Source: Nitrospirota bacterium (GTDB lineage Bacteria > Nitrospirota > JACRHL01). From it: a DNA stretch of 64,000 bases. Positions 18,295-62,656 of this stretch are shown piece by piece. The notes below the pieces were generated by a model. It was not told the DNA's origin, made no database searches, and was given only the letters and a program-made list of their open reading frames with translations. Position 1 is the first letter of the stretch; each line of letters begins with the position of its first letter. Where the stretch lies: positions 27,925-91,924 of the forward strand of contig JACRHL010000021.1 in NCBI GenBank assembly GCA_016212085.1. The letters run 5' to 3'. The position numbers were made by a program, and so were the translations under genes.

Positions 18295-18411
18295 CCGCCG
18301 GCGCCGGGACACGGCGCCCCCCAAGGCCCGTGCCGGTGTGTCCGGAACGGGCCTTCGCTGTTCATGCCCGGCGCCGGGCGGTGAACGCCGGACCGGCGCC
18401 GGATGCCGGGG

Positions 18412-18909: not shown

Positions 18910-19115
18910 AGTCAACCTCCCCGGACGGAGGGGCGGTGCCGGGCGGGCGCCGCGCCCCGTCCTGAACATGCGCGTCCCGGTCACCGGCCTGCCGGGCGCG
19001 GGACGCGCGCGATCACACTGCGTGGGGACCGACCCCCATACCCCAATGATTGCCCCACCCGGCCCCATCCGCCAGTTTTTGCAGGGATTTTTTTTGCGGA
19101 CCGGGGCGGCGGCGC

Positions 19116-47632: not shown

Positions 47633-47675
47633 CGGTGGTCAACCCCCATTGCGGTCAGGAAGCGGTCCGCCGGCG

Positions 47676-48476
47676 CTACGGCACCAGCGTGAGCAGCACG
47701 CCCTGGCCGTGTGCGCCGCCCAGCCGCCGCACGTGGGCGTTCACGACGCGCGCGCCGGCGCCGGGCAGGGCCACCGCCATGTCGGTCTGGTCGGGCTGCC
47801 CCAGCAGCGTGTTCAGGGTGTGCGGCAGCGTGAGCTCCGCCAGACAGCTCACCAGGCTGCCGCCATCGGGCATGAACATCAGGTCGGCGGCGCGGTTGGA
47901 GATGGCGATCAGCCCGTCATCCGCCAGTCCGATCACCGGCACCGGCAGCGCCTCGATCAGATCCTGGAAGCCCTCCAGCGCCTGCTGCCGGAAGGTGACG
48001 TCGGCCACGGTCTCCGCCACCTGGCTGGCCAGCTCGGTGTTCATGGCGAGCAGTTGGCGGTTGGCATTTTCCAGGGCCGTTTGCAGGCGCCGGTTCTCCG
48101 CCTTCAACTCGTGATAGGAGAACGCCTCGGCGATGTCGGCCCGCAGGGCGATGTCGTCCCACGGCTTGGTCAGAAAGCGGAACACGGCGCCGCGGTTGAC
48201 GGCGGCCACCACGGATTCCAGCTCCGTGTAGCCCGACAGGGCGATGCGCACCGCGTCCGGGCGGACCGCGCGCGACCGCTCCAGGAACTCGACGCCGGTC
48301 ATCTCGGGCATGCGCTGGTCCGAGACGATCACGCCCACGTCGTGCGCCGCCAGGAGTTTCAGCCCGTCGGCCCCGGAGTTGGCCTTGTGGATGGTGTAGC
48401 CGTCGCGGCGCAGCACGCGCTCGATGGCGTTCAGGATGTTGGGCTCGTCGTCGACGAGCAGAAGGACGCGTTCCAT
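47676..48476 (-). CDS. Response regulator (receiver, coiled coil, PAS-like)
   Basis: LLVDDEPNIL, SDQRMP, FLTKPW. Confidence 0.9.
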   Translation of the reverse strand: MERVLLLVDDEPNILNAIERVLRRDGYTIHKANSGADGLKLLAAHDVGVIVSDQRMPEMTGVEFLERSRAVRPDAVRIALSGYTELESVVAAVNRGAVFRFLTKPWDDIALRADIAEAFSYHELKAENRRLQTALENANRQLLAMNTELASQVAETVADVTFRQQALEGFQDLIEALPVPVIGLADDGLIAISNRAADLMFMPDGGSLVSCLAELTLPHTLNTLLGQPDQTDMAVALPGAGARVVNAHVRRLGGAHGQGVLLTLVP

Positions 48477-48644
48477 GGGTTCCCCGCTACGGCCGCCGCC
48501 CCCTCCCCAGGAAAACGGCGGGATATCGCCTTCCTATCGGCACCCCGCCGGGCGGGATTGAGCAGGCGCCGGCAGCGCCGTTGAAAAACGCCGGTTTTCG
48601 GCGAACCCGCGTCCGCCACAGGGATGGGCTTTTTCAACACCCTG

Positions 48645-48673
48645 AAAACCGCCAAAACGCCAGAAACGCAAGG
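48645..48673 (+). promoter_or_regulatory. CAGAAACGC repeat motif, copy 1
   Basis: aaaaccgccaaaacgccagaaacgcaagg, about 90 bp before the terS operon. Confidence 0.55.
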
Positions 48674-48761
48674 TGCCGTATTTAGCGCGCCGCTAATCTG
48701 CCCCCATGCGGCCGGCAGCCCGATGGGCGGGCGCCCGGCCACCATGCACGGAGGGAGAACG

Positions 48762-48935
48762 ATGATGGAACGCGACTGGCCCTACCCGCCCCAATGGCAG
48801 GAGCGCCGCGAGGAGATGGCCCGCTGCGGATGCAGCCACTGCGACGCCCTGCGCGCCGACGCCCCGGCCAAGGCCGCCGCCCTGGCGCGCTACGTGGCGG
48901 CCCAGGGCACCGCCCCGGCGGAGGCGGCCCCATGA
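48762..48935 (+). CDS. 57-aa hypothetical protein with CxCxxC
   Basis: GGAGGGAG RBS; ATGA-coupled to the next gene. Confidence 0.65.
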   Translation: MMERDWPYPPQWQERREEMARCGCSHCDALRADAPAKAAALARYVAAQGTAPAEAAP

Positions 48936-49204
48936 GCGAGACCGGCAACTGGCACCTGGACCGGCGCGTGTCGGTGGGGCACCTGGTCACCACCCTCACC
49001 GTGCTGGTGGCCATGGTGCTGTGGGGGGCGCGGCTGGAGACGCGCATCGTGCTCATGGAGCAGGATGCCGCCCGCCAGGCGCGCGTCGACGCCCGCCAGG
49101 AGGCGGACGTGCAGCGCCTGCGCGAGGAGATCCGGGAGGAGCTGAAAAGCCTGAACGCCAAGATGGACCGCTTTTTCGAGCGGCTCATCAAGGGGGGTGA
49201 GTGA
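48932..49204 (+). CDS. Phage-type small membrane protein (1 TM plus coiled coil; holin-like?)
   Basis: WHLDRRVSVGHL, TM, coiled coil; coupled to terS. Confidence 0.65.
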   Translation: MSETGNWHLDRRVSVGHLVTTLTVLVAMVLWGARLETRIVLMEQDAARQARVDARQEADVQRLREEIREELKSLNAKMDRFFERLIKGGE

Positions 49205-49656
49205 CCCGGCCGGACACCGCCGCCGGCCAGCGCGGGCGCGGTACCCCCACGCGCTACACCATCGCCACCGCCCGCGCCATCTGCCAGCGCCTGGCGCGGG
49301 GCGAGCCCCTCACCCTGGTCTGCGCCGATCCGGCCATGCCCGCCTACCGCACGGTGATGGACTGGCTGGCGGCGCGGCCGCGCTTCCGGGAGATGTATGC
49401 CCAGGCGCGGGTGCTCCAGGCCCATGCCCTGGCGGACGAGATCCTCCAGGTGCTGCGCTGTGACCGGCTGCCCCCGGCGGACAAGCAGGCGCGCATCAAG
49501 GGGCTGGCGTGGCTGGCCGCCAAGCTGCACCCGCAGAAATACGGCGACCGCTCCGGCCCCGCCCCGGACGGCGCCCCGGCCCCCGGCTTCACGGTCATCG
49601 TGAACCCGCCGGCCATCGGGGCCGAACCCCTGGAACAGGAGAGTGACGATGAATAG
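49201..49656 (+). CDS. Terminase small subunit (Sf6 gp1-like)
   Basis: PTRYT...ICQRLARGEPL..VC.DPAMP...TVMDWL...FREMYAQAR...WLAAKLHPQKYGDR. Confidence 0.85.
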   Translation: MTRPDTAAGQRGRGTPTRYTIATARAICQRLARGEPLTLVCADPAMPAYRTVMDWLAARPRFREMYAQARVLQAHALADEILQVLRCDRLPPADKQARIKGLAWLAAKLHPQKYGDRSGPAPDGAPAPGFTVIVNPPAIGAEPLEQESDDE

Positions 49657-49671
49657 GCAGGAACAACGGAA

Positions 49672-49814
49672 GGGCACCTCTCAAAACCTGCTGCGCGCTC
49701 CGATTGCTGCGTTGGGCGGTGCTCGAACCCTCGCCTATCACCCAGATATGTCTCGGGCTCTGCGCTCCGTCCGCCTTGCACTCGGGGTGCTCGCGACGGT
49801 TTTGAGCGGTGCCC
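49672..49814 (+). mobile_element. MITE family A copy 2 (143 bp)
   Basis: TIRs; GGAA target duplication; in-frame and stop-free. Confidence 0.92.
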
Positions 49815-50011
49815 GGAAGCAGCAACCACCCCAACGCCGCCTCACCGCCCGCCCCGGCGAGGACGGCATCATTGCCGATGAGACCCCCACCCCGCGCCTG
49901 ATCGCCCTGGCCCGCGAGCTGGCGGCCAACCCGCAGGTGAGCCGGGAGGCGGCGTCCAAGGTGCTGTGGAGCGCCGTGAAGGCGGACCCACCCGCCATGC
50001 CGCCCCAACAT

Positions 50012-50154
50012 GGGCACGCCCGAAAACCTACTGCGCGGCCCCATCGCTGCGTTGGGCGGTGCTCGGCCCCTCGCCTATCGGCTTGATATGTCTCGGGGCC
50101 TGCGCTCCGTCCGCCTTGCGCTCGGGCCGCTCGCCACGGTTTTCGGGCGTGCCC
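50012..50154 (+). mobile_element. MITE family A copy 3 (143 bp)
   Basis: Perfect 17-bp TIRs gggcacgcccgaaaacc/ggttttcgggcgtgccc. Confidence 0.9.
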
Positions 50155-50668
50155 CGCCCGCTGGCACGACGACCCCGGCCGCCGCGACGCCGCCATGCGC
50201 GGCCTGACCGCGCTGGCCACCGATCCCGCGCGCCGCCACCAGAACCCGGACGAGGTGCTGCACCTGTGGGCCAGCGGGATGGAGGGCAACCCCGGCGCCT
50301 ACGAGCGGGCCCACCCCACGCCACCGTGGCGAACGGTGGGCCAGGTAGTTGGCTACGAGACCGACTTTTACGCGGACCAGCGCCGCTATCCCTTCACGGA
50401 CGGCCTCCGGGCCGATTGGCACGACGTGAGCGGCAAGGTCGGTGGCAAGATCGCCAAGGCCGCCCACGCCATCGGCGCCACCCAGGTGGAGCAGCGCTTG
50501 CTGGCCGACGCCGAGCGCGACCAACGGGCGGCGGAGGCGTTGCGAACGCAACACAAGTACGACCCGAACGCCTATCTGGCGTTCCTGGCGGGGCGGTACG
50601 GGCGGCAGGCCAATTCCTATGGGAACATCATTCGCAAGGTGGGCCCCCGTGTCGGCAGGAAAATATTT

Positions 50669-50822
50669 GGGCACCTCTAGGGCACCTCTATTAACCTGCT
50701 GCGCGCCCCGATTGCTGCGTTGGGCGGTGTTCGAACCCTCTCCTATCACCATGATATGTCTCGGATTCTGCGCTCCGTCCGCCTTGCACTCGCACCGCTC
50801 GCGACGGTTATTAGAAGTGCCC
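50669..50822 (+). mobile_element. MITE family A copy 4 with duplicated left end
   Basis: gggcacctcta twice in tandem; ATTT target duplication. Confidence 0.9.
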
Positions 50823-50847
50823 ATTTGGATGGAACCGATAGGCGTGG

Positions 50848-51213
50848 CTAGGTGATTGCCGCGAGAAGAACCGTTACCACAAGGATCGAAACGGAAAACA
50901 ACACCAGAAACCAGAATCCGTCCGGCCAGCGCCGCTCCGGCCAGCGGCGCATCATCCGGCGGCGCAAGGGCTCGGCCAGGCCGGCCAGCAACCCGGCCAG
51001 GCCGAGCCCCTCCGTGGCCGCGCACGGCACGCCGCCACCGATGTCCGCCTCGCACAGGTAGACGGACACCAGGAACAGCAACGCCCCGGCGGTGACGAAG
51101 ATGACTGCCCGGCTTTCCCACAGCGCTCGCCGCATGGGAACAGGGCGCACCGTCCTGGGTTCCCGGGGATACGGGGCACCGGGCTCGGGCGTCTGGGGCG
51201 GCTGCTCGCTCAT
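50848..51213 (-). CDS. Small 3-TM membrane protein
   Basis: Three hydrophobic segments; convergent on the 49649 gene. Confidence 0.65.
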   Translation of the reverse strand: MSEQPPQTPEPGAPYPREPRTVRPVPMRRALWESRAVIFVTAGALLFLVSVYLCEADIGGGVPCAATEGLGLAGLLAGLAEPLRRRMMRRWPERRWPDGFWFLVLFSVSILVVTVLLAAIT

Positions 51214-51424
51214 GGTGATGAGGGTACCAACCGGCGGTAACGGCGGCAAGGGGGATTGATCGCGTTATGCTATCCTTCCCCCGGGCGCGCGGCGGGCACG
51301 TACCAACAGGGGCTCTTGCAGCCCCGTCCGGCATCCTTCCCCTGGGCGCGCGGCGGGCACGGTTGTTGGCGGCGGGGCCGGCGGGGCGCTAGACTGACCG
51401 GAACCATCCAGCACGGGGCGCGCC

Positions 51425-53188
51425 ATGGCCGAGGGACAGCGGTGTGAGTTCAAGCATGAGGCGTACAACTTCATCCGCACCCTCCCCGATGGAATTTGGA
51501 GGGCCGTGGACAGCCAGGAGCGGTGCTGGATGCGGACGGACACGGCAACCTTCACAACCGAGTCCGGCCCCGAACGCTACTGCCTGCTGCACGCCCGGGC
51601 GGGCCAGGAGCCGGAGGATCGTAAGGACTGGCCCCTGGCAATGCGGGAGGACGCCCAGGCGGCCCTGCTGGGACGGCTGGTCCGCGAGTGGGCGGAGGTG
51701 GTCGGGCAATTGCCGGAAGGCCAGCGGCCCGCGCTGGTGCTGGCGGGCATCCGGTGCGGTGACATCGACCTCAACAAGCAGGTTTTTCCCGCCCGGATCG
51801 ATTGCAGCGGGGCCAAGTTCATGGGCGACGCCTGGTTTGGCAAGGCCGAGTTCACGGGCGACGCCTTGTTTCGCGGGGCCACGTTCACGGGCAGCGCCGA
51901 GTTTGGCGGGGCCACGTTCACGGGCAGCGCCGAGTTTGGCGGGGCCACGTTCACGGGCGGCGCCGAGTTTGGCGGGGCCACGTTCACGGGCGACGCCAGG
52001 TTTGGCGGGGCCACGTTCACGGGCGACGCCAGGTTTGGCGGGGCCACGTTCACGGGCGACGCCTGGTTTCGCGGGGCCACGTTCACGGGCGACGCCTGGT
52101 TTCGCGGGGCCACGTTCACGGGCGACGCCGAGTTTGATCGTGCGGCGTTCAGCGGGGATGCCCTGTTCCGCCGCACACAGTTCGAGGGCCGGCTGGTGGC
52201 CGAAGCTGCATGGTTCCTGGGCCGGCTGGTGCTGGAGGACAACCAATTCGGCTTCCCCGCCGTGTTCTCCGGCTGCCACATGCACCGGCTCGAGTACCGC
52301 ACCCACAAGGGGGAGCGGCTGTTTTTCAACGGCTGCATCACCGTGGACCGGGTGGACGACCACCTGGTTGATGCGGAAACCCGCGGCACCCTTGACCTCG
52401 CCATTCTGGAGAATGGAGCCCGGCCCACGGAACGGCAGGCGGGCTGGCTCGGGTTCCAAGGCCAGCACTGCGAGCAGATCACCTTCCAGAACATGGACTT
52501 GAGCCGGGCGGATTTCGTCCGGGCGGACGTTTCCAAGACGCGCTTCATCTCCTGCCGCTGGAACCCGCCGGACAAGCCGCGCTATCCGAGGCTGTGGGGC
52601 CACCCGGACAAGCTGCCTTCGCAGGACCGGGAGCAGAACGAGCAGGAGTTGTTGCTGTTCAAGAACGCCTACGAGCAGCTCAAGAACAACCTGGAGGGGC
52701 ACCGGGATTACGTGCAGGCGGGGGCGTTCCACTATTGGGAGATGGACCTGCGCCAGCGGCTGCTGCGGCTGAGCGGCAAAAATGGACGCAAGAACAGCGC
52801 AGAACGTCCAGAGATGGCCCTGCGCCAGCGGCTGCTGCGGCTGCTGCGGCTGAGCGGACGGTGGCTGGAGCGGGTGCTGTTCGGCCTGTACCGGCTGACC
52901 GCCGATTATGGCGAGAGCTACGCCAAGCTATTCGTGACCATCGCCGTCACCCTGGGGCTGGCCACCCTGGGGGTGCATTGGCGGGAGTATCTGCCGTGGG
53001 ACGGGTGCGGGGTTTGGCAGACGTTCCACAACACCGTGTTCAGCCTGGTGCCGTCCGCGTTCCAGAAGGACAGTTCCAGCGCGTTGCAGCACGACGCCAG
53101 CAAGTGGATCGTGCTTGGCGAGGGCATCCTCCTGGTCGTCCTGGTGCCCATGTTCGTCATGGCCGTCCGCCGCCGGTTCCGGCGCTGA
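51425..53188 (+). CDS. Pentapeptide-repeat protein with C-terminal membrane domain
   Basis: About ten 11-aa FTGDAxFxGAT repeats; CxxH motif; TADYGESY followed by TM segments. Confidence 0.88.
   Translation: MAEGQRCEFKHEAYNFIRTLPDGIWRAVDSQERCWMRTDTATFTTESGPERYCLLHARAGQEPEDRKDWPLAMREDAQAALLGRLVREWAEVVGQLPEGQRPALVLAGIRCGDIDLNKQVFPARIDCSGAKFMGDAWFGKAEFTGDALFRGATFTGSAEFGGATFTGSAEFGGATFTGGAEFGGATFTGDARFGGATFTGDARFGGATFTGDAWFRGATFTGDAWFRGATFTGDAEFDRAAFSGDALFRRTQFEGRLVAEAAWFLGRLVLEDNQFGFPAVFSGCHMHRLEYRTHKGERLFFNGCITVDRVDDHLVDAETRGTLDLAILENGARPTERQAGWLGFQGQHCEQITFQNMDLSRADFVRADVSKTRFISCRWNPPDKPRYPRLWGHPDKLPSQDREQNEQELLLFKNAYEQLKNNLEGHRDYVQAGAFHYWEMDLRQRLLRLSGKNGRKNSAERPEMALRQRLLRLLRLSGRWLERVLFGLYRLTADYGESYAKLFVTIAVTLGLATLGVHWREYLPWDGCGVWQTFHNTVFSLVPSAFQKDSSSALQHDASKWIVLGEGILLVVLVPMFVMAVRRRFRR
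51818..52170 (+). repeat. 33-bp coding tandem repeat
   Basis: ggggccacgttcacgggcgacgcc(t/a)ggttt(c/g)gc units. Confidence 0.92.
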
Positions 53189-53478
53189 AGGGTCGACAAG
53201 GGGCGCTTGCCGCCGGCGTTGCCGGGGCCCGGTGGGCCCTCCCCTGCCCGTTTGGGCGCGGCGACCGGGGCGCCTGCGACGGTTAACGGGGGTACCCATT
53301 CCCCCCCAAAACGAACGCGCGGCACATCGAACCCAGCCCCCATCGTTGGATTCGATGCACCGCGCGCGGGCGTGGCCTGGCGGTCAGGCGCCTGCCAGGC
53401 AGGCGCACACCAGGGCGATCATGGCCCACAGGCCGGGGCGGACGGCCGGTGGGGTGGCGGGTTTAGCGTTCATGGTCA

Positions 53479-53642
53479 GGGCACTTCCATCAACCTGCCG
53501 CGCGCCCCGATTGCCGCGCCCAGCGGTGCCCGAACCCTCGCCCATCACCGCGATATGCCCCGGATTCTGCGCGGCGTGGCGGTGCCGCTCCGCTCGGGGT
53601 GCCTTGCACCCGGTGCCCTTGCGACGGTTGATGAAGGGGCCC
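53479..53642 (+). mobile_element. MITE family A, long variant (164 bp)
   Basis: gggcacttccatcaacc/ggttgatgaaggggccc; flanks gtca/atca. Confidence 0.85.
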
Positions 53643-53643
53643 A

Positions 53644-54045
53644 TCACTTGCCCACCCGGATGATGTGTTGCACCGCGTTGTCGATCAGCTTGCGCCAGGC
53701 CGCCTCCACCTCCGGGGTGAGCTTGGTGTCGAACTCCCGCACGCACTGCATCAGGCTGTTGGACCAGTAGCTGTACAGGTCGGCCCGGATGTCCATGCCG
53801 CGCACGCCGTGGCTTTCGCCGATGCGGTTCAGGGAGTTCGCGGCCATCATGTTGTGCTGCGAGAACAGGATCACCATGGAGATGCCGTTGCGCAGCAGTT
53901 TTTTCTGCTCCTTGAAGTCCGTGTTCCTGAACATGGGCGCAAGGCCCGGATGGCTGGCCAGGAAGATGTCGTAAAAACGGTCGATGAAGCCCCCCTTCAG
54001 GGTGCAGCGAGCGTAGCTCTCCTGCACCGCGCCTACACTGTCCAT
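53644..54045 (-). CDS. Single-domain globin
   Basis: ESYARC, FIDRFYDIF, FRNTDFKEQK, GESHG, AAWRK. Confidence 0.88.
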   Translation of the reverse strand: MDSVGAVQESYARCTLKGGFIDRFYDIFLASHPGLAPMFRNTDFKEQKKLLRNGISMVILFSQHNMMAANSLNRIGESHGVRGMDIRADLYSYWSNSLMQCVREFDTKLTPEVEAAWRKLIDNAVQHIIRVGK

Positions 54046-54336
54046 TCTGATCTCCTTGTGTCTCCGTTTGCGTGAACGCCCCCCCGGGGCCCGGTCTTGG
54101 GCCACCACCATGGTGACTGGCTTACTGATCGGCCCCCGCCACCCCCGCCCCGATGACGGATGTCATATGGAAAGCCATGTTTATTTCCCGGCGGGGGGAG
54201 GGGGGGCGAAAAGGGGGCGAATCGGCTGGGTCAGGATGTGCGGGGGCGCGAAAAGGAGGGCACCTTACGGGGAGCCACGCGCCGTGCCCGGTTGAACAGG
54301 CCGCGGTGCCCCATGGGTGGGAGGGGCGTTATATGG

Positions 54337-55026
54337 CTACTGCGTGCCCCGGAGGGAGAATAGGATATCGACGGCTTCGTGTACGTGCGTGTGGGGATTC
54401 GACGTGCCGTTGGCTGATGCCCGCAGCAGGCCGGCGGCAGCTAGTTGCCCTGCGGCGGCCCTTCTGTTTTCAAGGTGCTGAAAAATACCAGCGCTTCCTT
54501 TGTGGTAAGCGGGCCAGTGCTGTTTCAGCAGATGTTCCGTCTGCTCCCCGATGGACCGCCCCCCTGACGGCGCAATGGGTGCGGTATGGTCCGTGAAGTG
54601 CAGCAATAACCAAAACTCAAAGCAGGGCTCCGATGTAATGGCGCGGAAATCGGCCTGTCCGGCGGATTTTCTCCCACACTTCATGGTCAACGGGGTTTGT
54701 TGAATGGAAGCGACGGCGTTTTGGTAATGGTTGTGGCTGTCCCGGTCGAACACGCACAACACGTAATCGTAATCGGGATGCTTCCGGAATTCCTCTACAG
54801 CGGTCTCAACCAGCCGTTTCGGATCGCACCCGGCGCCAATAACCTTCATGTTCAGGGTCTGTATTCTTTGGCTGGCGCGGATTTCCTTGAAATAGGTGGC
54901 GGAGGATTTTCCGTCCTCACAGACCACAAGCGCCCGCTTGTAGGTTGAGCGGGTCGCCTCCCGCCGCTTCAACTCCTTGGCGGCGTGCGCCTTGCGCTTC
55001 TGGTGCAGCTTGTCCGGCGCCATCAA
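54337..55026 (-). CDS. RloB-family protein
   Basis: LVVCED, CVFDRD, SEPCFEFWLLLHF, NPHT. Confidence 0.9.
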   Translation of the reverse strand: MMAPDKLHQKRKAHAAKELKRREATRSTYKRALVVCEDGKSSATYFKEIRASQRIQTLNMKVIGAGCDPKRLVETAVEEFRKHPDYDYVLCVFDRDSHNHYQNAVASIQQTPLTMKCGRKSAGQADFRAITSEPCFEFWLLLHFTDHTAPIAPSGGRSIGEQTEHLLKQHWPAYHKGSAGIFQHLENRRAAAGQLAAAGLLRASANGTSNPHTHVHEAVDILFSLRGTQ

Positions 55027-56276
55027 AGCCGTTCCGGCGTCAGGACCGGGAGCGCGCCGTAGCGCCCGCTCATGTAACCCTTTTGCAGTTTTTCATCCAG
55101 GCGTGGCTTGAACTCGGACAGCGGCGTGAGCGTCGACGCCTGCGACGCGTCCTTTTCGACCAGCCAAATCTGGTCGCGCCGGAACAGGTCGTCCATCAAC
55201 GTTACATCGTGGGTGGTGAAGATAAGCTGTGCGTTTTTCGGGTTGTAATGGGGTGAATGGATCAGTTCCACCAGAAAACGCACCAGCTTAGGGTGCAGGC
55301 TGCTGAGCTCATCGATAACCAGCACCATGCCGTTCGCGATGATATCCCGCCACGGGCCGGCCAGGGCGAACATCGCCCTGGTACCGTCGGATTCCGATTC
55401 AATTGGAAACCGCTCCTGTCCGCTGCCGTCGGGGCACTCGTGGAGAAACACGGGCCGCCGCATCTTTTTGCCCACGATCTCTTGTTTCAATTCTTCTGGC
55501 GCGCTGGGAAGGTCGTCCGCCGTGATCGTCTTTCGATCGACAGCGATTCCATTGATGCCCAGGTCGGCGGCCTTCATGAAATTAGCAAGACCGGAAGCGC
55601 CGCCTTCATTTTCAATCATATCCAGCGTGTGAGCGATGTGACGGTACTCCAGCAAACCGTTCCCCATCAGGAACAGCCCCTCCTGGAACCACTCCGGGAT
55701 GACCGACAACTGCTCGTGGTTGAGCTGTGCCGCCGTCGACACGAACAGGGCGTTGGGGCGAGTGGCCTCCTGGATGACCTGCCTCTGCCCCAGCAGGCTG
55801 TTCCCCATCCCCCAGGTGTACGCATCGCTTGCATCGTCATAACTGCGCTTGAACCACATCTGCGCGCGGCCGACGGGCCAAGCAAACAGCCACTCCTCCA
55901 CCACCCGTTCGCGGGTCAGCGCAAATCCGTACTGGTAGTGGATGCCCTTGTGGATGAACAGGATCTCGAATTCGCTCGGCTGATTCCGGCTATCCCGGTC
56001 CAGGAGAAACGGCGTCGCGCCGGTTTTCGCCTTGGGCTCACGGCCCGTCGCGGAATCCCGGACAAAGTTGTGCATGAACGCCAGCGCATTGATTACGTTA
56101 GTCTTTCCGCTGGCATTGGGGCCGAACAGAGCGGCCGAGCGGAGGAGTCGGGGGGCCTTGGGGGCCTTGGGGTCGAAGGTGTTGCCGGGCATCTCCTTTC
56201 CGGAGCCCGCCACCATGGACAGCGTCTGCTTCTCCCGGATGGACCGGAAGTTGGTCACGCTGAACTCGATGAGCAT
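55023..56276 (-). CDS. AAA_21/AAA_15 ATPase (RloA/AbiLi-like)
   Basis: MLIEFSVTNFRSI, GPNASGKTN, ESDGT, IDE...LHP, QLIFTTH, GRYGALP. Confidence 0.92.
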   Translation of the reverse strand: MLIEFSVTNFRSIREKQTLSMVAGSGKEMPGNTFDPKAPKAPRLLRSAALFGPNASGKTNVINALAFMHNFVRDSATGREPKAKTGATPFLLDRDSRNQPSEFEILFIHKGIHYQYGFALTRERVVEEWLFAWPVGRAQMWFKRSYDDASDAYTWGMGNSLLGQRQVIQEATRPNALFVSTAAQLNHEQLSVIPEWFQEGLFLMGNGLLEYRHIAHTLDMIENEGGASGLANFMKAADLGINGIAVDRKTITADDLPSAPEELKQEIVGKKMRRPVFLHECPDGSGQERFPIESESDGTRAMFALAGPWRDIIANGMVLVIDELSSLHPKLVRFLVELIHSPHYNPKNAQLIFTTHDVTLMDDLFRRDQIWLVEKDASQASTLTPLSEFKPRLDEKLQKGYMSGRYGALPVLTPERL

Positions 56277-56459
56277 CGGTCAGGTCTCCCGTAATAAGCC
56301 ACTAAAAATACAAAAACTGGCGAATTCTGCGGAAAATCCGCAAAAAACGCAAATTAAACATACCACACATCATTTATCGGGCCAGCCATGTCGCTGGTCA
56401 AGGGTTTTCGAAGAACTCGCCGCCCGTTTGCGCAAGCCTCCTAGGTTGCAACCCCAACG

Positions 56460-56489
56460 GCGGGACCGGCCCCCCTTGAGCCGGTCCCG
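56460..56489 (-). terminator. Hairpin directly after the portal gene
   Basis: gcgggaccggc-N8-gccggtcccgc; weak U-tract. Confidence 0.5.
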
Positions 56490-56497
56490 CCGCCCCC

Positions 56498-58312
56498 CTA
56501 CCCGATTAGCCCCGTGTCCGCCGGCAGGTCCGCCGTTCCCGGCATCTGCAACCCGGCGTTGATGCGGGCGGCCTCCGCCGCCGTTTTGGCGGCGCGGGCG
56601 GTGCGTTCGGCGATTTCGGCCCTGATGAGCTCCCGCTGGAGCATGGCCGCGTCGGTGGGGTCCGGGGCGGGGCCCCTCATGAGTTCCAGGATGCGCTCCC
56701 TGCCGCGCAGGGAGCTGGCCTCCACCAGGGCCTCCGGCGGGATGGGCACGCCGCCCTCCGCCAGGCGCGCCAGGGTCTGGAACTCCTCCTGCCGCACGGA
56801 GGCCGTGTCGGGCACGTCGCCCACGATGATGTCCACGTCCAGCTCGGCCACGTGGTTCTGGTGGGCCACCACGTCGTCCAGGCTGGGGTCGCCGATCAGC
56901 TCCGGCGGGATCTCGCCGAACTCGTCCACCAACTGGGCGGCGCGGGTGACGGGGATGTTCAGCCCCACCCAGGCCAGGCTGCGCTCGTCGTTGGTGACGC
57001 GCACCCAGCGCACCTCGGTCCAGAACTGGCGGATGCGCCCCCACGCCTTGCGGTAGGCGCGGGTCTGCCAGGCGCGCAGGGTGTCCAGGAGCGGCCCCAG
57101 CTCCATGCGCGCCCCCTGCTGCAAGAGCTGGATGGCGCGGCCGCTGGCGCCCTCGGCCCCGGTGATCTGGGCGGCGCCCGCGCCCACGGCGTCGATCTCG
57201 TTCTTGGCCTCGGTGAGCAGCTGGAACTGGGCCGTGGCCATGTCGCCCGTGGGCAGGATCTCCAGCTCGAAGCCGGGCACCGTCTCCAGCCAGCCGTCGG
57301 GCCGGGCCAGCTCGCGGCGGGCGCGGGCCACGTCCTCCACCGCCCCCTTCTCGGCGCGCACCTGGCGCACGGAGAGCAGGTGCAGCGCCTTGGAGCGGCG
57401 CTTGTTGATCTCGTCCTGGATGCCGATCATCTGGCGCACGGCGCCGTAGCGCTCGCCATCGCGGGCGACGAAGGCGGCGGCGCACACGTAGGGGTCTTCC
57501 GGGTTGCCCTCGTCGTCCCGGTAGGGGGAGGCGGTGGGGCCCTTGAGGATGCCGCCCCGGCAGAACACCGCCTGGAACACCTGGCTCCCCTCCTTGTACC
57601 AGCACTCCACCACGCGCACCCGCCGGCGGCGGCGGTCGGCCCAGCGGCTGGGCTTGTCGTCGTAGGTGCCACTCTCGGCCTCGGTGTAGGCGCTGTCGAG
57701 CAGTTCCAGGTGGTTGGGATACTTGGCCTGGGCCTCCGCCAGGTCCATCCAGATCACCTGGCCGCGGTACCTTGCGTCCTCCAGGTCGCGGCGGCGGGCG
57801 TGGGGGTCCACGAAGGCGCGATCCCAGCCGATGGGGCTGATGGTCACGCGGGTTTGTGTCCCCCTGCGCGCCGCCACCACCTCGGCGAAGCCCGAGCCCT
57901 CCACCAGCATGTGCTCGAACACCTGGGAGCGGACCTGGTCGAAACCGTTGTCGTCGAGCACGAAGCGGATGGCCTCGGTGGCGGCCTTGGCGGCGCCCTC
58001 GTCCGCCGGGTTGCGCGGGAAGCAGCGCGGGTCGGTGCGGCTTTGCCGCTCCAGGCCCAAGAGGTAGTCCACCTTGGGCTTGATGCGGTTGACCACGATG
58101 GGGGCCTGGCCGCGCCGGGACAGGGCGTCCTCCTCGGTGGCGGTCCACTGGCGGCCGTCGTAATAGTCGCGGTCGCGCTCGGCGTGCAGGCGGCCCTCGA
58201 GACTGGCGTCCTCCGCCTCGTCGAAAAAGCCCACCAGCTTGGCCAGCAGGGCCTCCCGTTCGGCCTGCTCGGCCTGGGATTGCCCGTTTTGGGATTGCCC
58301 GTTTTGGGTCAT
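56498..58312 (-). CDS. Phage portal protein (P22-like/podovirus type)
   Basis: DRDYYDGRQW, NRIKPKV..LLG, YGAVRQMIGIQDEINKRRSK, SGRAI, N.VAELDVDIIV; ATGA-coupled to terL. Confidence 0.88.
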   Translation of the reverse strand: MTQNGQSQNGQSQAEQAEREALLAKLVGFFDEAEDASLEGRLHAERDRDYYDGRQWTATEEDALSRRGQAPIVVNRIKPKVDYLLGLERQSRTDPRCFPRNPADEGAAKAATEAIRFVLDDNGFDQVRSQVFEHMLVEGSGFAEVVAARRGTQTRVTISPIGWDRAFVDPHARRRDLEDARYRGQVIWMDLAEAQAKYPNHLELLDSAYTEAESGTYDDKPSRWADRRRRRVRVVECWYKEGSQVFQAVFCRGGILKGPTASPYRDDEGNPEDPYVCAAAFVARDGERYGAVRQMIGIQDEINKRRSKALHLLSVRQVRAEKGAVEDVARARRELARPDGWLETVPGFELEILPTGDMATAQFQLLTEAKNEIDAVGAGAAQITGAEGASGRAIQLLQQGARMELGPLLDTLRAWQTRAYRKAWGRIRQFWTEVRWVRVTNDERSLAWVGLNIPVTRAAQLVDEFGEIPPELIGDPSLDDVVAHQNHVAELDVDIIVGDVPDTASVRQEEFQTLARLAEGGVPIPPEALVEASSLRGRERILELMRGPAPDPTDAAMLQRELIRAEIAERTARAAKTAAEAARINAGLQMPGTADLPADTGLIG

Positions 58313-59757
58313 GCGGTTTTCCACCCGATCGTCTCCTTTTCGCAGAATGCCTGGTGCCACCGGTCGGCGGCGGGGTTGGCGGTGGCCCGCGCGGGCGCCT
58401 GGGGGCGGCTCATGCAGGCGTACCGGGTTTCGTCATAGGCGTGGTCCTCGGCGGCGCTGTCCACGTCCTCCGGGTCGGCGGGGTCCAGGGGCAGTTCGGG
58501 CACCGTGCGCAGAAAGCCGTCCAGGCAGGAGGAGAACACGTACAGCATGGGCCGCCCGTCCTCCCCCTCCAGGCGGCGGCGCACCTCCTGGTAGCCCGCC
58601 TTGCGGTTGTTGGCGGCGCGGCGCAGGATGACCCCCGCCGCCGCCATGTGCTCGGCCACGCTGGGGCCGTCGTGCTGGCCGAAGATGGCCGGGTCGGCCA
58701 CCCCGTAGGCGATCTTCTCGCCCTTCTCGCGCGCAAGGATGCCCTGGGCCACCTGGGTGCTGGTGAGGCGCAGGCCCCGGTCGGGCCGGCCGTCCCAGCC
58801 GTACCACTCCCGGTAGCGCACCAGGGCCCCGGCGGGGAGACAGGCCCCGCCGGGCAGGGATGCCCCGCCGGGCAGGGGCGCCCCGCCGGCCACCGCCCAC
58901 CACCCCACCGAGAACGGCTTCGAGCTGCCCCAGTCCAGGGCCCGGAAGCGCGGCCAGTGGGCGGGCACGGCAAACGGCGCCAGCACGTGGCGTTGCCGGT
59001 CGAACAACTCCAGGGCCTGGCCGGCGGCGATGTCCCAATCGCCATCGCGCAGGGCGCGCACCAGCTCCGGCGCGCCCAGGCCGCTTAGGCGCTCCAGGTA
59101 TTCCGGGTCCTGGGCCAGCAGCGTGGGGTTGTCGGCCAGGCGCGCGGGGATGTACTGGCGGCGCATGCCCCCCTCCTCCGGGCGGGCGCGCCACACGCGG
59201 CCCGGCTCGGCGGGGGCGACCCAGGCGGCCTTCACCCAGGCGTGGCCCACCGAGCCGGGGTTGCTGGCGCACTCGATGCGCGGCAGCAGCCCCGCGTGGC
59301 GCACCGGCACCTTGAGCCCCGCGCGCCGCACCCGCGAGCGCAGAAAGCGGTACTGCGCCTCGGAGAAGTGGGTCAGCTCGTCGATGAGCAGCACGTGGAT
59401 CTCCGCCCCCTGGTAGCGGGCCACGTCGGTCTCGTGCTGCAAATGGGCCAGCTTGAGCACGCTGCCGCTTGCGAAGCGGAACTCCGCCTGCTGCTCGCGC
59501 CACGCCACCTGGCCGGCGCCGGCAAGGGGGGCGAGCAGCTCGTGCAGGTTGCCGGGGCCGCGCAGGTGATTGGCGCGCAGGTCCGGGTGGGTGCGGCGGA
59601 ACAGGTACACCTGGATGCCCGGCACCTCCAGGCACCAGCGGATGCCCGACACGCGCAAGAGGAAGCTCTTGCCGCCCCCCGCCGCGCCGCCGTAGAGCAG
59701 CTCGGTGGCATGGCTCAAGAAGGCCTCCGACTGTTTGGCATGCAAGCTGACCCGCAC
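58309..59757 (-). CDS. Terminase large subunit
   Basis: LYGGAAGGGKS, YQGAE, IDELTHF, ASNPGSVGHAWVK, LDWG, DHAYDETRY; GGAGG RBS before GTG. Confidence 0.93.
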   Translation of the reverse strand: MRVSLHAKQSEAFLSHATELLYGGAAGGGKSFLLRVSGIRWCLEVPGIQVYLFRRTHPDLRANHLRGPGNLHELLAPLAGAGQVAWREQQAEFRFASGSVLKLAHLQHETDVARYQGAEIHVLLIDELTHFSEAQYRFLRSRVRRAGLKVPVRHAGLLPRIECASNPGSVGHAWVKAAWVAPAEPGRVWRARPEEGGMRRQYIPARLADNPTLLAQDPEYLERLSGLGAPELVRALRDGDWDIAAGQALELFDRQRHVLAPFAVPAHWPRFRALDWGSSKPFSVGWWAVAGGAPLPGGASLPGGACLPAGALVRYREWYGWDGRPDRGLRLTSTQVAQGILAREKGEKIAYGVADPAIFGQHDGPSVAEHMAAAGVILRRAANNRKAGYQEVRRRLEGEDGRPMLYVFSSCLDGFLRTVPELPLDPADPEDVDSAAEDHAYDETRYACMSRPQAPARATANPAADRWHQAFCEKETIGWKTA

Positions 59758-59799
59758 CGGCCCTCCCAACGGTTCGTGACCACCACCGGGGTCCGAGGT

Positions 59800-59864
59800 T
59801 ATCCGCCCGGACGGCCATGCGGCGTTACGTTTCTTGCGTTTCCTGCGTTTCTGGACGTTGCCGG
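59800..59864 (-). promoter_or_regulatory. CAGAAACGC repeat motif, copy 2
   Basis: Minus strand: ccggcaacgtccagaaacgcaggaaacgcaagaaacg...gcatggc...ggcggata. Confidence 0.6.
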
Positions 59865-59993
59865 CGGGAGGGGGTAAGGCATCGCGCGCGCCGGATGCGG
59901 GATGCCGGATGTTTGTCAAAATGCTGAACGGCTTGAGGCCCGCTCCGGGCGCTGCTAGGATGGCCGGAACCTGCCTGCCGCCAAAGGGGTGCC

Positions 59994-61247
59994 GTGCGCG
60001 TTTTTTTGTTCATCCTGGCCGTCTGCTGCGCCCTGGCCGCGCCGCCCGTGGAATTCGCGCGGGCGGCGGACGACGGGCGCTTGCCGGTGCTGGAGGCGCT
60101 GCTCGAGCGGTCGGCGGCGGGGAATCCGGCCCTGTCGCCGGATCTGACGCAGGCCGCCGCCGCCGTCCGCGCCGGCCGCACCGACGAGGCCGTCGAGCGG
60201 CTGACCCCCCTGGCGGACGCGGGCGACCCCTGGGCCCAGGCGCTCCTGGGGGAGGTGCTGCTCAGGACGGGCGCTCCGGCCAACCTGGCCAAAGCCATTG
60301 GCAGCCTGACCGCCGCCGCCAACGGGGGCGTGGCAGAGGCCGCGTTCTGGATCGCGGAATATTTTGATCCGGCCATCGGCCTCTGGCCGGACGTGGAGTG
60401 GGCGCGCACCTGGTACCAGCGGTCGGCGGAAGGGGGGTATGCCGGCGCCGCCTACACGCTGGCACGCAACTACTACTTCGGCGGACCGGGCCTTCCGGCC
60501 GATATCGCCGAGGCAGTGCGGTGGTACAAGGTGGCGGCGGAAGGCGGGGAGCCGCTGGCCGCCAGGGTGCTGGGGGAGCTGTATTGGAATGGCCTCGGCG
60601 TGGCGGCGGACCGCCGCGAGGCGCTACGCTGGTACCAGGTGGCGGCCGACCATGGGGATCTGGAGGGTCTCACGCTGGTGGGGTGGGCCCTGGTTACCGG
60701 CGAATGGCTTGACGCGGACCCGCCCCGGGGGCACGCGCTGCTCGACCGCGCGGTGCGACAGGGATACCCGGACGCGATCGGCCGAAAAGCGCTGACCCTT
60801 TTTCTCGGCCGGGGGTTGGAACAGGATGTGGACGCGGCCATCCATATGCTCATGCCGCTGGCGGAAGCCGGCGACACCCTTTCGCAGGCCCGTTTGGCGA
60901 CTTTCCTGAGCATGACGGACGATGGGGCGGACAACCTTTCCCGCGCGCTTCGGCTGGCGCGCGCGTCCGCCGAGCAGGGCGACATGGCGGGCCAGTTCGA
61001 ACTGGCCCGCCTGCTGATCACTCGTGACGCCATACGCGACATGAACGAGGGTCGCCGCTGGCTGGAACGGGCCGCCCGCACCTGCCTGGACCAGCGCGCC
61101 CCCGACGTTGCGAACCTGATCGTGCCGCTGCTGCGCGCGCACTTTCCCGATTCGCCCGTGCTGCCGGAACTGGAGCGGATGCTGGCGCCGTTGGCCGGCG
61201 TATTGGCGGATCCGGCCCTATTGCAACGGTTTGTCCTGGGGCCCTGA
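59994..61247 (+). CDS. Secreted Sel1-repeat protein
   Basis: Signal peptide; repeated A..WY..AAE.G...A...LG..Y..G. Confidence 0.9.
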   Translation: MRVFLFILAVCCALAAPPVEFARAADDGRLPVLEALLERSAAGNPALSPDLTQAAAAVRAGRTDEAVERLTPLADAGDPWAQALLGEVLLRTGAPANLAKAIGSLTAAANGGVAEAAFWIAEYFDPAIGLWPDVEWARTWYQRSAEGGYAGAAYTLARNYYFGGPGLPADIAEAVRWYKVAAEGGEPLAARVLGELYWNGLGVAADRREALRWYQVAADHGDLEGLTLVGWALVTGEWLDADPPRGHALLDRAVRQGYPDAIGRKALTLFLGRGLEQDVDAAIHMLMPLAEAGDTLSQARLATFLSMTDDGADNLSRALRLARASAEQGDMAGQFELARLLITRDAIRDMNEGRRWLERAARTCLDQRAPDVANLIVPLLRAHFPDSPVLPELERMLAPLAGVLADPALLQRFVLGP

Positions 61248-62126
61248 CAACGCGTTTGCCGCGTCGTTGAACACGTTGCTGAACTGGTCCCCTAGAACCC
61301 CCTGGGCGACCGGGTTTCGTGGGCCAATAAAGAGCCGGGCCGCCACGCCACCCATCAGACTCCTGGACCCGTCCCGTCCCATGGCGGCGATTGCGGCTTC
61401 CGCCGCCGATTCATGGGGAACGCCCAGTTCGCGTAGGGTGCGGTATGCTTCGCCCCCCGCGTTTGCCGCGTGGAACGTGGTACCGGTGGCGGCACCGACG
61501 GGGGTGCCGTAGGCGGATACCCCGATTTGGAGGCCCGATCCCACCGTCTCGGCGAAGTCCGCCCCGACCCCCTGCGGGTGGTACCGCCCCGCCTGGCGCG
61601 CAAAACCCTCGGCGGCCGTGCCCATATGGGTGGCGGTGGCGCCGAATCCGGCGGCGCCGGCGGCGGCCGCGCCCCCCAGGGCCAGGCCGGTTTGCGTGTC
61701 CAGCACCCCCTGCCGCACGCGGGCGTTGAAGTTCCGGGTGAAGTCGATCGGGACATCGGCGCGCGCCCGGTCAGCCGCCATGTCCCATTCCGGGCGATAG
61801 GCCTCCAGGCGCGGATGGATGCCCGTGGGGTCGAAGGGTGCCCCCGGCCCGATTCCCAGCCGCTGAAAGGCCGGCGTCGGCTCGGCCGCCGGCCGCCAGC
61901 CGTTGGCCGCCTGCCGGTCCAGGGCCGTGGGGGCGGCGGGGCCGAATGGTCCGGCCGACCAGGGCGTTTCGTCCTGGATCATCGGCCCCATGGCATTGCG
62001 GGGGATGGTGTTGAACGGCACCACCAATGGCGGCGGGGTCTCGTCGGCGATCATCGGTCCCATGGCGTCATGGGGGATGCTCGTGCCGTGGGCGGCGCGG
62101 CGGGTGAGGTTCAGTGGATTCGGCAT
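61218..62126 (-). CDS. Hypothetical Ala/Gly-rich protein, possibly a phage ejection/cargo protein
   Basis: GGGAG RBS; duplicated AMGPMI(A/Q)DETP; glycine-zipper-like segments. Confidence 0.65.
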   Translation of the reverse strand: MPNPLNLTRRAAHGTSIPHDAMGPMIADETPPPLVVPFNTIPRNAMGPMIQDETPWSAGPFGPAAPTALDRQAANGWRPAAEPTPAFQRLGIGPGAPFDPTGIHPRLEAYRPEWDMAADRARADVPIDFTRNFNARVRQGVLDTQTGLALGGAAAAGAAGFGATATHMGTAAEGFARQAGRYHPQGVGADFAETVGSGLQIGVSAYGTPVGAATGTTFHAANAGGEAYRTLRELGVPHESAAEAAIAAMGRDGSRSLMGGVAARLFIGPRNPVAQGVLGDQFSNVFNDAANALSGPQDKPLQ

Positions 62127-62163
62127 GGCGCGTGTCTCCCCGGGTTCATTCCCGCGCCCAGCC

Positions 62164-62217
62164 TATCCACCCGCCATGCCCGACGCCTTGCGTTGTCTGC
62201 GTTTCTGGCGGTTCCGG
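62164..62217 (-). promoter_or_regulatory. CAGAAACGC repeat motif, copy 3
   Basis: Minus strand: ccggaaccgccagaaacgcagacaacgcaagg...gcatggc.ggtggata. Confidence 0.6.
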
Positions 62218-62490
62218 CACGGTTTCTTCCGCCGCCGTCAGCGGCCACGCGCCCGGTGCCGGAAAAATCGTCCGGTGGCGGGCGTTTTCCGGTCAACCGA
62301 TCCGGCCCCCGCGCGTTGATGCACCCACGGGGGCCGTTCCGGCCCTCGGCCCGCCGCCGTCCCCTGGGGGCGGGATGGGACGGGATGCGGCCGCGGGTCC
62401 CTCATGGAGCCCCCCCTCCGTGCCGTGGCCGCATCCCGGCCTTGTTCCCTTGGGGGTTGTGCCCCCCCTCCCCGGACTGTTTCACCTCCA

Positions 62491-62656
62491 GGGCACCTCT
62501 ATCAACCTGCCGCGCGCCCCGATTGCTGCGCCAAGGCGGTGCTCGAACCCTCGCCTATCTCCCGGATATGTCTCGGGCTCCGCGCGGCGTAACGGTGCCG
62601 CTCCCCTCGGGGCGCCTTGCGCCCGGGACCGCTCGCGACGGTTTTGAGAGGTGCCC
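62491..62656 (+). mobile_element. MITE family A, long variant (166 bp)
   Basis: gggcacctct.../...agaggtgccc; TCCA target duplication. Confidence 0.9.

Follow-up and report, generated by a model that had tools for sequence, protein, structure and literature searches.

Packaging genes and a shared promoter element

A 64,000-nucleotide stretch of a Nitrospirota genome (assembly GCA_016212085.1, contig JACRHL010000021.1, positions 27,925 to 91,924; G000:C18:27925-91924, hereafter the window) was analysed for a set of phage-derived DNA-packaging genes, which encode a small and a large terminase subunit (TerS, TerL) and a portal protein and lie in separate units among unrelated genes. The original prediction, made from the letters of the window, had read this set as a packaging system run as a regulon from one shared upstream motif. 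The genome, G000, is a 2.70-Mb metagenome-assembled genome (MAG; ~70% GC, 23 contigs, 99% complete), in which contig C18 measures 122 kb. Genes were called by using third-position GC, and proteins were scanned against Pfam and PHROGs. Features are collected in Table 1.

The three predicted units were found on the strands described, with one correction to the gene content of the first (its IADETP protein, treated below). The first holds a CxCxxC peptide, a membrane protein resembling Rz-type i-spanins and a TerS of the Sf6 type; the second holds TerL, which had no Pfam match, and a portal of the P22 type. TerS and TerL lie on opposite strands, 8.6 kb apart. Genes for a pentapeptide-repeat protein, a globin-like protein, an AbiLi/AbiLii pair and a Sel1-repeat protein are found between the units. 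TerS, TerL and portal had been called open, translationally coupled and host-like in GC, and this was confirmed: the genes are intact, 4-nt overlaps join the CxCxxC gene to the Rz-like gene, the Rz-like gene to TerS and TerL to portal, and the GC content at third codon positions (GC3) of TerL and portal is 0.95-0.96 (rpoB: 0.95). A hairpin follows the portal gene in place of scaffold and capsid genes, as had been noted. Lacking a T run, it did not appear in the terminator scan; the consensus scan for terminators and promoters gave no signal (14 terminator-like sites versus 9.9 +/- 3.6 expected; one promoter-like site versus 0.8). Sequence searches of the PDB with TerL and with an HTH_17 protein described below yielded nothing usable, and no RNA run was listed as containing the TerL-portal stretch.

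The 9-mer CAGAAACGC occurs three times in the window (0.36 expected), a count reached by 3 of 100 shuffles and marginal by itself. Each of the three units is preceded by an extended element, which upholds the claim of a shared motif: two to four tandem 9-bp units (consensus AGAAACGCA) are followed after exactly 19 nt by a -10-like TAnnnT, 30-60 nt before the first start codon. A position matrix was built from six such sites and the whole 2.7-Mb genome was scanned at a threshold of 18 bits. Seven sites scored higher (the six training sites and a new one), all of them directly upstream of phage-like units. A genome scan of the motif for coat, scaffold or tail genes had been proposed as a check, and a variant copy does precede a cluster of scaffold-like, coat and tail genes on contig C4.

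Two simpler patterns were rejected. The bare 9-mer has 20 matches in the genome (two in the reversed control) and shows the tandem context at the three window sites only; the match at C4:8591 shares only the -10-like GGATAGGC, and the remaining 16 fall mostly within coding sequence. A loose two-unit pattern was unspecific, with eight matches versus 11 in the reversed genome and one or two in five simulated genomes.

The element in the genome and in related genera

Among isolated phages, the P22-like podovirus Pan3 of Pseudanabaena (Pseudanabaena phage Pan3) is nearest, its portal being 47.5% identical to that of G000. A search of G000 with Pan3 proteins found homologues of the coat (40% identical), a gp10-like protein, an ejection protein, a tailspike and TerS, the structural ones being located on C4. 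The C4 coat matched phrog_334 (1.2e-77) and PF13252, the Hc3/gp10 protein phrog_578 (2.2e-116) and the ejection protein phrog_598. The Pan3 TerL gave no tblastn match in G000, so the two TerL proteins are of different types. The TerL-portal genes lie 34 kb from the nearest end of C18 and the structural cluster 21 kb from the nearest end of C4; since both loci are in mid-contig, at least 55 kb separate them. The genomes of related phages measure 38-40 kb, and in Pan3 and the IMG/VR contigs L076, L077, L079 and L080 the coat gene lies ~0.5-2.8 kb downstream of the portal gene, whereas that of G000 is on another contig. The hallmark proteins of a P22-like phage are all present (Sf6-type TerS, P22-type portal, P22-like coat and gp10-like hub) without the contiguous late operon of an intact prophage (lysis, TerS, TerL, portal, scaffold, coat, tail, ejection), which was not found in G000. 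Nor was the set of integrase, full replication module and three ejection proteins; a lambda-P-like helicase loader alone remains.

This loader is encoded in a control region outside the window (C18:104346-107535), together with a CI/LexA-like S24 peptidase repressor, a second helix-turn-helix (HTH) repressor and a 131-aa HTH_17 protein. A late promoter stands immediately after the HTH_17 gene both in G000 and in the IMG/VR contig L086; in lambdoid phages, the place just before the late promoter is that of the late regulator. Solely from this position, we infer that the HTH_17 protein is the late activator. A gene transfer agent (GTA) would be expected to be under host control and to lack a phage replication or lysogeny module; here phage control and loader genes are retained, and as these phage-type genes survive outside the window, regulation looks phage-derived rather than host-derived.

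The order of G000, as covered here, comprises seven genomes in seven genera, G000 and six relatives from sister genera (G001-G006). Conservation in related genomes, another check that had been proposed, was borne out: the portal is present in all six sister genera (55-70% identity) and in 0 of 34 Nitrospirota genomes of other families. TerL is 59-70% identical in the relatives, with a conserved start, and orthologues of TerS (42-57% identity) and of the Rz-like protein (57-67%) were found in G001, G004 and G006. The CxCxxC peptide is kept in the lysis cassette of the relatives with the pattern C-x-C-x-x-C ... L-A-R-Y (11 invariant columns in three aligned sequences). The HTH_17 protein occurs in 6/6 relatives, in G001 as a fragment only. 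The coat was found in five of the six, intact in four and as a 71-aa fragment in G001; it was not found in G002, an assembly of 540 contigs.

The least rearranged relatives share the gene order of P22/Sf6-like podoviruses (lysis, TerS, TerL, portal, scaffold, coat, tail). In L086, which is 63% identical over the portal N-terminus and 62% in TerL, the order is canonically lambdoid: a CI-like repressor, early genes, HTH_17, a promoter with 9-bp repeats and an M15 endolysin are followed by the CxCxxC peptide, a PF11351 holin, the Rz-like protein, TerS, TerL and portal. The gene before TerL in L086 (8252-8536, 94 aa) gave no tblastn match to the Sf6-type TerS of the window, and the lineage may have exchanged its small terminase. 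In G004 and G006, the stretch from endolysin to portal is kept together, with the coat clusters on other contigs; in G001, 7 kb of kinase genes separate TerS from TerL; in G005, ~5.7 kb including a Sel1 gene lie between portal and scaffold. The layout of G000 is the most scattered of the series. The arrangement of a Sel1 gene next to TerL recurs in G005, and the Sel1-repeat protein may be a passenger of the element.

A further copy in G006, 50-59% identical, is of another kind. It occupies a contig of 40,075 bp (G006_C47; 59% GC in a 67-70% host) that carries the same GC-rich tandem repeat at both ends and encodes an integrase, RusA, an exonuclease and RecT-like pair, two methylases and three ejection proteins; this contig is evidently a genuine, complete P22-like temperate phage.

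The 9-bp units are likewise found beyond G000. In G003 they stand upstream of TerL and of the scaffold gene, the sole two matches in 294,546 bp of the relatives' contigs (both strands). Read by eye, tandem units precede TerL in 4/6 copies and the scaffold gene in 4/5, and those of L086 are placed precisely in the interval from the HTH_17 gene to the endolysin. Since units precede TerL and scaffold even in unbroken operons, the ancestor probably had several late promoters. Such promoters, probably ancestral to the phage lineage to judge from these sequences, would probably have allowed the operon to break up without loss of expression. Sequencing run X5, from another study, contains a strain ~95% alike, whose TerL promoter has one 9-bp unit fewer (9 nt missing at 59825).

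Further sequences were noted at these loci. A ~30-nt leader, GGGCG..ACGGGACGACGCCG....GGTCG, stands just before the scaffold-like gene (C4 ~53700-53740, -) and also occurs in G001, G003, G005 and G006; it may be an RNA hairpin controlling translation. A resolvase N-terminal domain fused to tetratricopeptide (TPR) repeats is encoded at C18:119675-120886 (-), with partial homologues (38-41%) 5-15 kb from TerL-portal in G003, G004 and G006. By eye, C4:18173-23190 holds a Mu-like run (transposase-sized open reading frame (ORF), small P-loop ATPase, HTH protein), which may be a second, unrelated prophage remnant.

Vertical descent of the element was assessed from flanks, composition and trees. Orthologues of three host genes (C4_29770, C4_35260 and C4_36205; 50-70% identity) adjoin the cluster at its tail end in G000, G001, G004 and G005, and in the five conserved-lineage genomes with this end among the fetched contigs the small ejection protein is the last of the cluster. 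In 7/7 genomes, the GC3 of TerL, portal, coat and Hc3 equals that of rpoB (range 0.76-0.98); that of G006_C47 is 0.69-0.78 versus 0.89 in its host. The hosts differ by 11-18% in RpoB, and synonymous sites by 29-59%. Pair by pair, the element genes had synonymous differences similar to or somewhat above those in rpoB, and TerL and coat rise in the same order. The closest host pair, G004 and G006 (RpoB 88.9% identical), is closest in the portal (75.4%) and in Hc3 (66.6%) as well, and forms a clade in the tree of four element genes (support 91/100); TerL and portal alone did not resolve (G004,G006a) (p value of the approximately unbiased test (p-AU) 0.27 for holding them together). No close free relative was found, the best full-length viral contig having 45% and the best phage 47.5% portal identity. 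Taken together, and on the basis of MAGs and one host marker, we read these data as a single ancestral insertion that became immobile early and co-diverged with its hosts.

Selection was then judged from codons. None of the seven TerL and seven portal genes contains an internal stop; stops listed earlier are the natural C-terminal ends. The dN/dS ratios of the Nei-Gojobori method (NG86) were 0.20-0.35 for TerL, 0.29-0.43 for portal, 0.45-0.47 for Hc3 and 0.32-0.75 (mostly 0.32-0.38) for coat, compared with 0.14-0.20 for rpoB, and were used only as "below 1", dS being unreliable and compressed at a GC3 of 0.8-0.98. Among the 31 differences listed between the TerL genes of G000 and the ~95% strain, 18 are at third positions (p = 0.004), and 17 of the 27 changed codons are synonymous (26% expected; p = 5e-5). 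The proposed dN/dS check on TerL and portal thus returned ratios below 1 and the substitution pattern of purifying selection. The tail genes are less conserved than TerL and portal (Hc3: 44-60% identity).

Accessory frames, repeats and assembly

The prediction had placed a protein with the peptide I-A-D-E-T-P both in the first unit and, as the only gene, in the third. That of the third stood as a 302-aa Ala/Gly-rich ORF with two I-x-DETP motifs near its N-terminus. The first did not: the stretch I-I-A-D-E-T-P (~49871) lies in a short, doubtful frame between two copies of a ~145-bp repeat, and the 161-aa ORF that follows, itself trailed by a third repeat copy, contains no I-x-DETP motif. The 302-aa protein has homologues in none of the six relatives and is specific to G000. 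It is weakly similar (E 0.001) to a 343-aa Ala/Gly-rich protein at C18:108364. With a language model, both proteins matched the same clusters of phage virion-associated proteins, some with LPD22 (0.93-0.94; 151-167 shared features, with 0.93 and 151-154 for the 302-aa protein), which serves as a lead only; the two might stand in for missing internal proteins.

The I-x-DETP pattern has eight six-frame matches in G000, a count without a chance expectation. The scaffold-like protein on C4 begins with I-V-Q-D-E-T-P; its orthologues in the relatives lack the motif, and the sequences scanned there gave two pattern matches, one being the N-terminus of the G006_C47 portal. A reading of the peptide and the DNA motif GAAACGC as one DNA element was rejected, as the codons differ between copies and GAAACG occurs in 2/7 only. 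At C20:9467-10520 (-), a ~240-bp stretch is duplicated, with two starts encoding M-S-D-I-I-A-D-E-T-P, both beside repeat copies; one runs into a stop at once and the other opens a Gly-rich ORF of ~270 aa. The promoter-like sequence before these starts was discarded as a late promoter, being part of the repeat and scoring below 18 bits.

This ~145-bp repeat has inverted ends, resembles a miniature inverted-repeat transposable element (MITE) and gave 124 blastn high-scoring segment pairs genome-wide. Copies lie at the borders of the phage-like units, where short-read contigs end, and the repeat may have mediated rearrangements. The AbiLi/AbiLii abortive-infection pair, in ~2 kb of low-GC DNA (0.60-0.61) just downstream of the portal hairpin, occupies the position that scaffold and coat genes have in related phages. 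The pair does not belong to the phage-derived system; it resembles a defence island acquired recently, filling the place that those genes vacated.

Logan contigs break at each MITE-like copy (49700, 50100, 50700-50790, 53520-53570 and 62500-62630), so the order of segments across the repeats rests on the original assembler. Between the repeats, one contig in each of three runs covers 53570-62520 with 0 mismatches (globin-like, AbiL, portal, TerL, Sel1 and 302-aa genes), and another contig covers 47000-49700 with 0 mismatches (response regulator, CxCxxC, Rz-like, TerS). Read depth is even across both parts, and the three runs may be the source sample. In run X5, the bins 52100-56600 and 60600-62300 had little or no cover, from which no inference was drawn; its TerL has an in-frame 18-nt deletion at 58844.

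Table 1. Features of the element and its surroundings (window positions unless a contig is given; late-promoter scores in bits, other scores as E values).
Feature	Position	Strand	Evidence
Late-promoter copy 1: three 9-bp units, 19-nt spacer, TAATCT; ~60 nt upstream of CxCxxC	48644..48699	+	57.2 bits
CxCxxC peptide, 57 aa	48762..48935	+	no Pfam or PHROG match
Rz-like protein, 90 aa; N-terminal membrane helix and coiled coil	48932..49204	+	weak: phrog_24782 9.6e-5; phrog_7686 9.7e-4
TerS, Sf6 type	49201..49656	+	PF20901 1.9e-31; phrog_1482 1.4e-31
Two MITE-like repeat copies flanking a short frame with I-I-A-D-E-T-P (~49871), doubtful gene	49660..50154		
ORF, 161 aa	50195..50680	+	no Pfam or PHROG family match
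MITE-like repeat, third copy	50679-50822		
MITE-like repeat, other copies	49660-49830; 50012-50154; 53478-53572; 62490-62656; C4:41922-42066		
AbiLii	54337..55026	-	6.1e-19
AbiLi	55023..56276	-	1e-99; AAA_21 (given for the AbiLi/AbiLii pair)
Hairpin, perfect 12-bp stem, directly 3' of the portal stop	56459..56491	-	read from sequence
Portal, P22 type, 604 aa	56498..58312	-	PF16510 6.9e-110; phrog_156 1.3e-105
TerL, 482 aa	58309..59757	-	phrog_979 5.7e-43; Walker A/B motifs readable
Late-promoter copy 2: three 9-bp units, spacer, TAACCT; ~40 nt upstream of TerL	59796..59853	-	57.3 bits
Sel1-repeat protein, divergent from TerL	60006..61247	+	PF08238 6.7e-23; phrog_8741 1.3e-38
Ala/Gly-rich ORF, 302 aa, two I-x-DETP motifs	61218..62126	-	
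Late-promoter copy 3: tandem 9-bp units, spacer, TAGGCT; ~35 nt upstream of the 302-aa ORF	62160..62215	-	60.6 bits
Promoter site before two small ORFs	C18:96912	-	
S24 peptidase repressor, CI/LexA-like	C18:104346-104936		PF00717 2.1e-28; phrog_4 2.6e-32
Second HTH repressor	within C18:104346-107535		phrog_12107
Lambda-P-like helicase loader	within C18:104346-107535	opposite to repressors	phrog_109 9.2e-24
HTH_17 protein, 131 aa	within C18:104346-107535	opposite to repressors	PF12728 8.8e-8
Promoter site outside the training set, right after the HTH_17 gene and before another I-x-DETP frame	C18:107571	+	
Promoter site before the 343-aa Ala/Gly-rich protein	C18:108280	+	
Promoter site before the scaffold-like gene	C4:53911	-	
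Structural cluster: starts with scaffold-like, coat, virion protein, tail fibre with SASA esterase domain	C4:42067-53676	-	
Structural cluster, continued: gp77-type fibre-tail adaptor, tailspike-like, Hc3/gp10, minor tail protein, one ejection protein	C4:42067-53676	-	PF23148 (adaptor)

Interpretation and comparison with known systems

The set is very probably phage-derived, dispersed, co-promoted and anciently resident. On the observed gene identities, dispersal, shared promoter, conservation, synteny and composition, we favour on balance an ancient P22-like prophage that is kept under selection as a regulon resembling a GTA or the PBSX element of Bacillus, with induction, activator, assembly, DNA content and release as predicted steps. 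The domesticated podovirus-type regulon originally proposed is retained in part: the set is not an ordinary contiguous prophage, whereas the shared motif alone does not prove domestication and the control genes are phage-derived.

The following course of events is proposed. A lambdoid, short-tailed prophage of the P22 type would have entered the ancestor of this uncultured groundwater order of Leptospirillia and been inherited under purifying selection, no longer able to move as a virus. Its late operon would have been broken into at least four pieces (CxCxxC, Rz-like and TerS; TerL and portal; the C4 scaffold-like, coat and tail genes; accessory ORFs), each headed by its own copy of an activator-type late promoter. 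DNA damage would inactivate the CI-like S24 repressor and de-repress the rightward genes including that of the HTH_17 protein, which would bind the 9-bp repeats and switch on all pieces together. Scaffold, coat and portal would then build procapsids, into which TerS and TerL would package headfuls of any DNA on which TerS initiates, and the tail parts would seal the filled heads. Given that the genes are spread over more than 55 kb and that neither an integrase nor a full replication module was found, GTA-like or PBSX-like particles with host DNA would be produced rather than progeny phage. Present-day assembly of DNA-filled particles, with GTA-like or PBSX-like action, is a tentative suggestion from the genes of the element, which we hold to be possible without being probable. 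Doubtful, in turn, is the more specific proposal of a short-tailed, P22-derived GTA in Nitrospirota, with a seven-promoter regulon under a phage-derived repressor and activator pair and with the large ejection proteins possibly replaced by genome-specific virion proteins that have an N-terminal I-x-DETP tag in common with the scaffold-like protein. The I-x-DETP tag could be a capsid-loading signal and the particle a carrier of DNA and possibly of protein.

Several findings weigh against the favoured reading. The M15 endolysin had no match in G000, and no holin lies between the CxCxxC and Rz-like genes of its late operon; the sole PF11351 holin of the genome (62.5 bits) stands beside a lysozyme-like gene, read by eye, at C14:128754-129700 (+), and this pair has a sigma-70-like promoter, lacks the late motif and is far from other phage-like genes. 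The head-to-tail adaptor and the needle were not identified in the search of G000 with Pan3 proteins. With the G006_C47 proteins as queries, tblastn (E <= 1e-3) found neither the 373-aa and 783-aa ejection proteins in G000 or in the fetched contigs of the relatives nor the integrase near the element; G000 was searched genome-wide and the relatives on fetched contigs only. Integrase-like fragments (34-35% identity) lie on C21 and C22 only, away from the element. The large ejection proteins of P22 are needed for DNA delivery. In G001, a deletion joins the first 71 coat codons to Hc3 codon 97 (G001:C24 ~17942-19273, joined-contig coordinates); this genome seems unable to make capsids, yet its TerL and portal are open. 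Both MITE-like repeats and a defence island have entered the region. Congruence of the trees, which had been proposed as a check, was partial: the G004/G006 clade is shared with RpoB, whereas the RpoB clade of G000 and G002 was not recovered by the element genes, though not clearly rejected either (p-AU 0.10, and 0.055 with four genes; single host marker). As multiple late promoters are apparently ancestral, the shared motif alone is no evidence of domestication, and the regulon layout could be inherited phage design rather than adaptation. All genomes compared are MAGs, only seven of them in the order.

Many of these points would suit a cryptic prophage in slow decay, whose leftovers have no present function and whose promoter is inherited phage design. 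Losses that differ by lineage (the coat in G001, the late-operon endolysin and holin in G000), large ejection proteins and an integrase not found near the element or on fetched contigs, the MITE and AbiL insertions, the doubtful IADETP frames and a 302-aa protein without homologues in any of the six relatives all agree with it. Decay is nevertheless improbable in view of TerL and portal genes free of internal stops in 7/7 genomes despite the divergence of RpoB and of synonymous sites, of dN/dS below 1 and the synonymous excess against the ~95% strain, and of GC3 fully ameliorated in each host, with promoter copies kept at every piece. TerL and portal are the sole parts intact in all seven genomes, including the coat-less G001, and the tail genes are less conserved, with Hc3 the example; this would be explained if TerL, portal and TerS had been exapted as a satellite helper or target, or as a defence or decoy module, with capsid and tail left to drift. 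Such partial exaptation is quite improbable, given a coat that is intact in 4/6 relatives, mostly with the low dN/dS given above, and a coat and tail cluster that keeps the same late promoter; moreover, we know of no case in which terminase and portal work in the absence of a capsid.

The conserved flanks could be mimicked by site-specific integration, and the complete 40-kb phage with integrase in G006 and the compact relative L086 in IMG/VR are what would be expected if live temperate phages had infected each genus separately at the same site, the scatter arising from morons and fragmented MAGs. We regard separate infections as very unlikely: the parts in G000 are in mid-contig, at least 55 kb apart and with host genes between them; no integrase lies beside the element, either in G000 or on those conserved-lineage contigs that were fetched, and all copies of this lineage stop after the small ejection protein; GC3 matches each host, whereas the true phage copy differs; and the nearest full-length viral contig or phage does not exceed 47.5% portal identity. 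An assembly or binning artefact, in which one phage contig was wrongly joined to host DNA at repeats, might be suspected from the breaks of the Logan contigs at every MITE copy and from the use of MAGs throughout; it is hardly credible beside mismatch-free single contigs in three runs (53570-62520; 47000-49700) with even depth, host-like GC3 and relatives from other studies with comparable break-ups.

The prophage kept as a regulon, which we prefer, was compared with known systems. PBSX is a defective prophage fixed in a clade of Bacillus, with a repressor and a late activator and with non-propagating particles that contain host DNA; it is a contractile-tailed element at a single locus. The element described here would resemble it as a defective prophage fixed in a clade with a repressor and a dedicated late activator, and differs in its dispersed layout. 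A capsid-forming phage-inducible chromosomal island (cf-PICI) is a chromosomal element that has its own terminase, portal and capsid genes and packages DNA other than a full phage genome. Chromosomal terminase, portal and capsid genes are shared with G000; PICI and cf-PICI are compact and mobile, with an integrase, a replication module and no tails, whereas the G000 set is dispersed and has tail genes, and no integrase was found. A compact mobile satellite island was accordingly not recognised in G000.

Vertical descent, conserved flanking genes and purifying selection are among the GTA criteria discussed in PMC5721377. The RcGTA-type GTAs of Alphaproteobacteria are similar in that a whole clade carries head, tail and packaging genes of phage origin in its chromosomes, split over several loci and with signs of vertical descent, conserved flanks and purifying selection; the PF11351 holin ("for gene-transfer release") also occurs in the lysis cassette of the relatives. 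They differ in having an HK97-type siphovirus ancestor and a host regulator, in place of the P22-like, short-tailed ancestor with Sf6-type TerS and the retained CI-like S24 repressor, HTH_17 protein and P-like loader found here; the clade here is one small order of Nitrospirota. As described in PMC12066065, the R/F-pyocins of Pseudomonas aeruginosa are controlled by the LexA/CI-like PrtR, which is inactivated by RecA, and by the small activator PrtN acting at P boxes. An S24 repressor and repeated boxes before phage-derived operons (9-bp units at seven promoters) would follow a comparable plan, with the activator proposed by position. The likeness is one of logic, and pyocins are tails without heads or DNA.

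To our knowledge, the genetically characterised GTAs represent few independent domestications. Described GTAs derive, in the part of the literature drawn on, from long-tailed phages, and literature searches, mainly of titles and abstracts, turned up neither a GTA reported from Nitrospirota nor one of P22 descent. If particles are made, a different type of virion would have been domesticated independently in a phylum relevant to subsurface nitrogen and iron cycling, and the element would be run by a simple regulatory code of tandem 9-bp boxes and a small HTH protein. Even if it is merely a long-lived, grounded prophage, the seven genera show stages in the break-up of a late operon in which each piece keeps its promoter, and this series is a concrete model for the origin of dispersed GTA loci.

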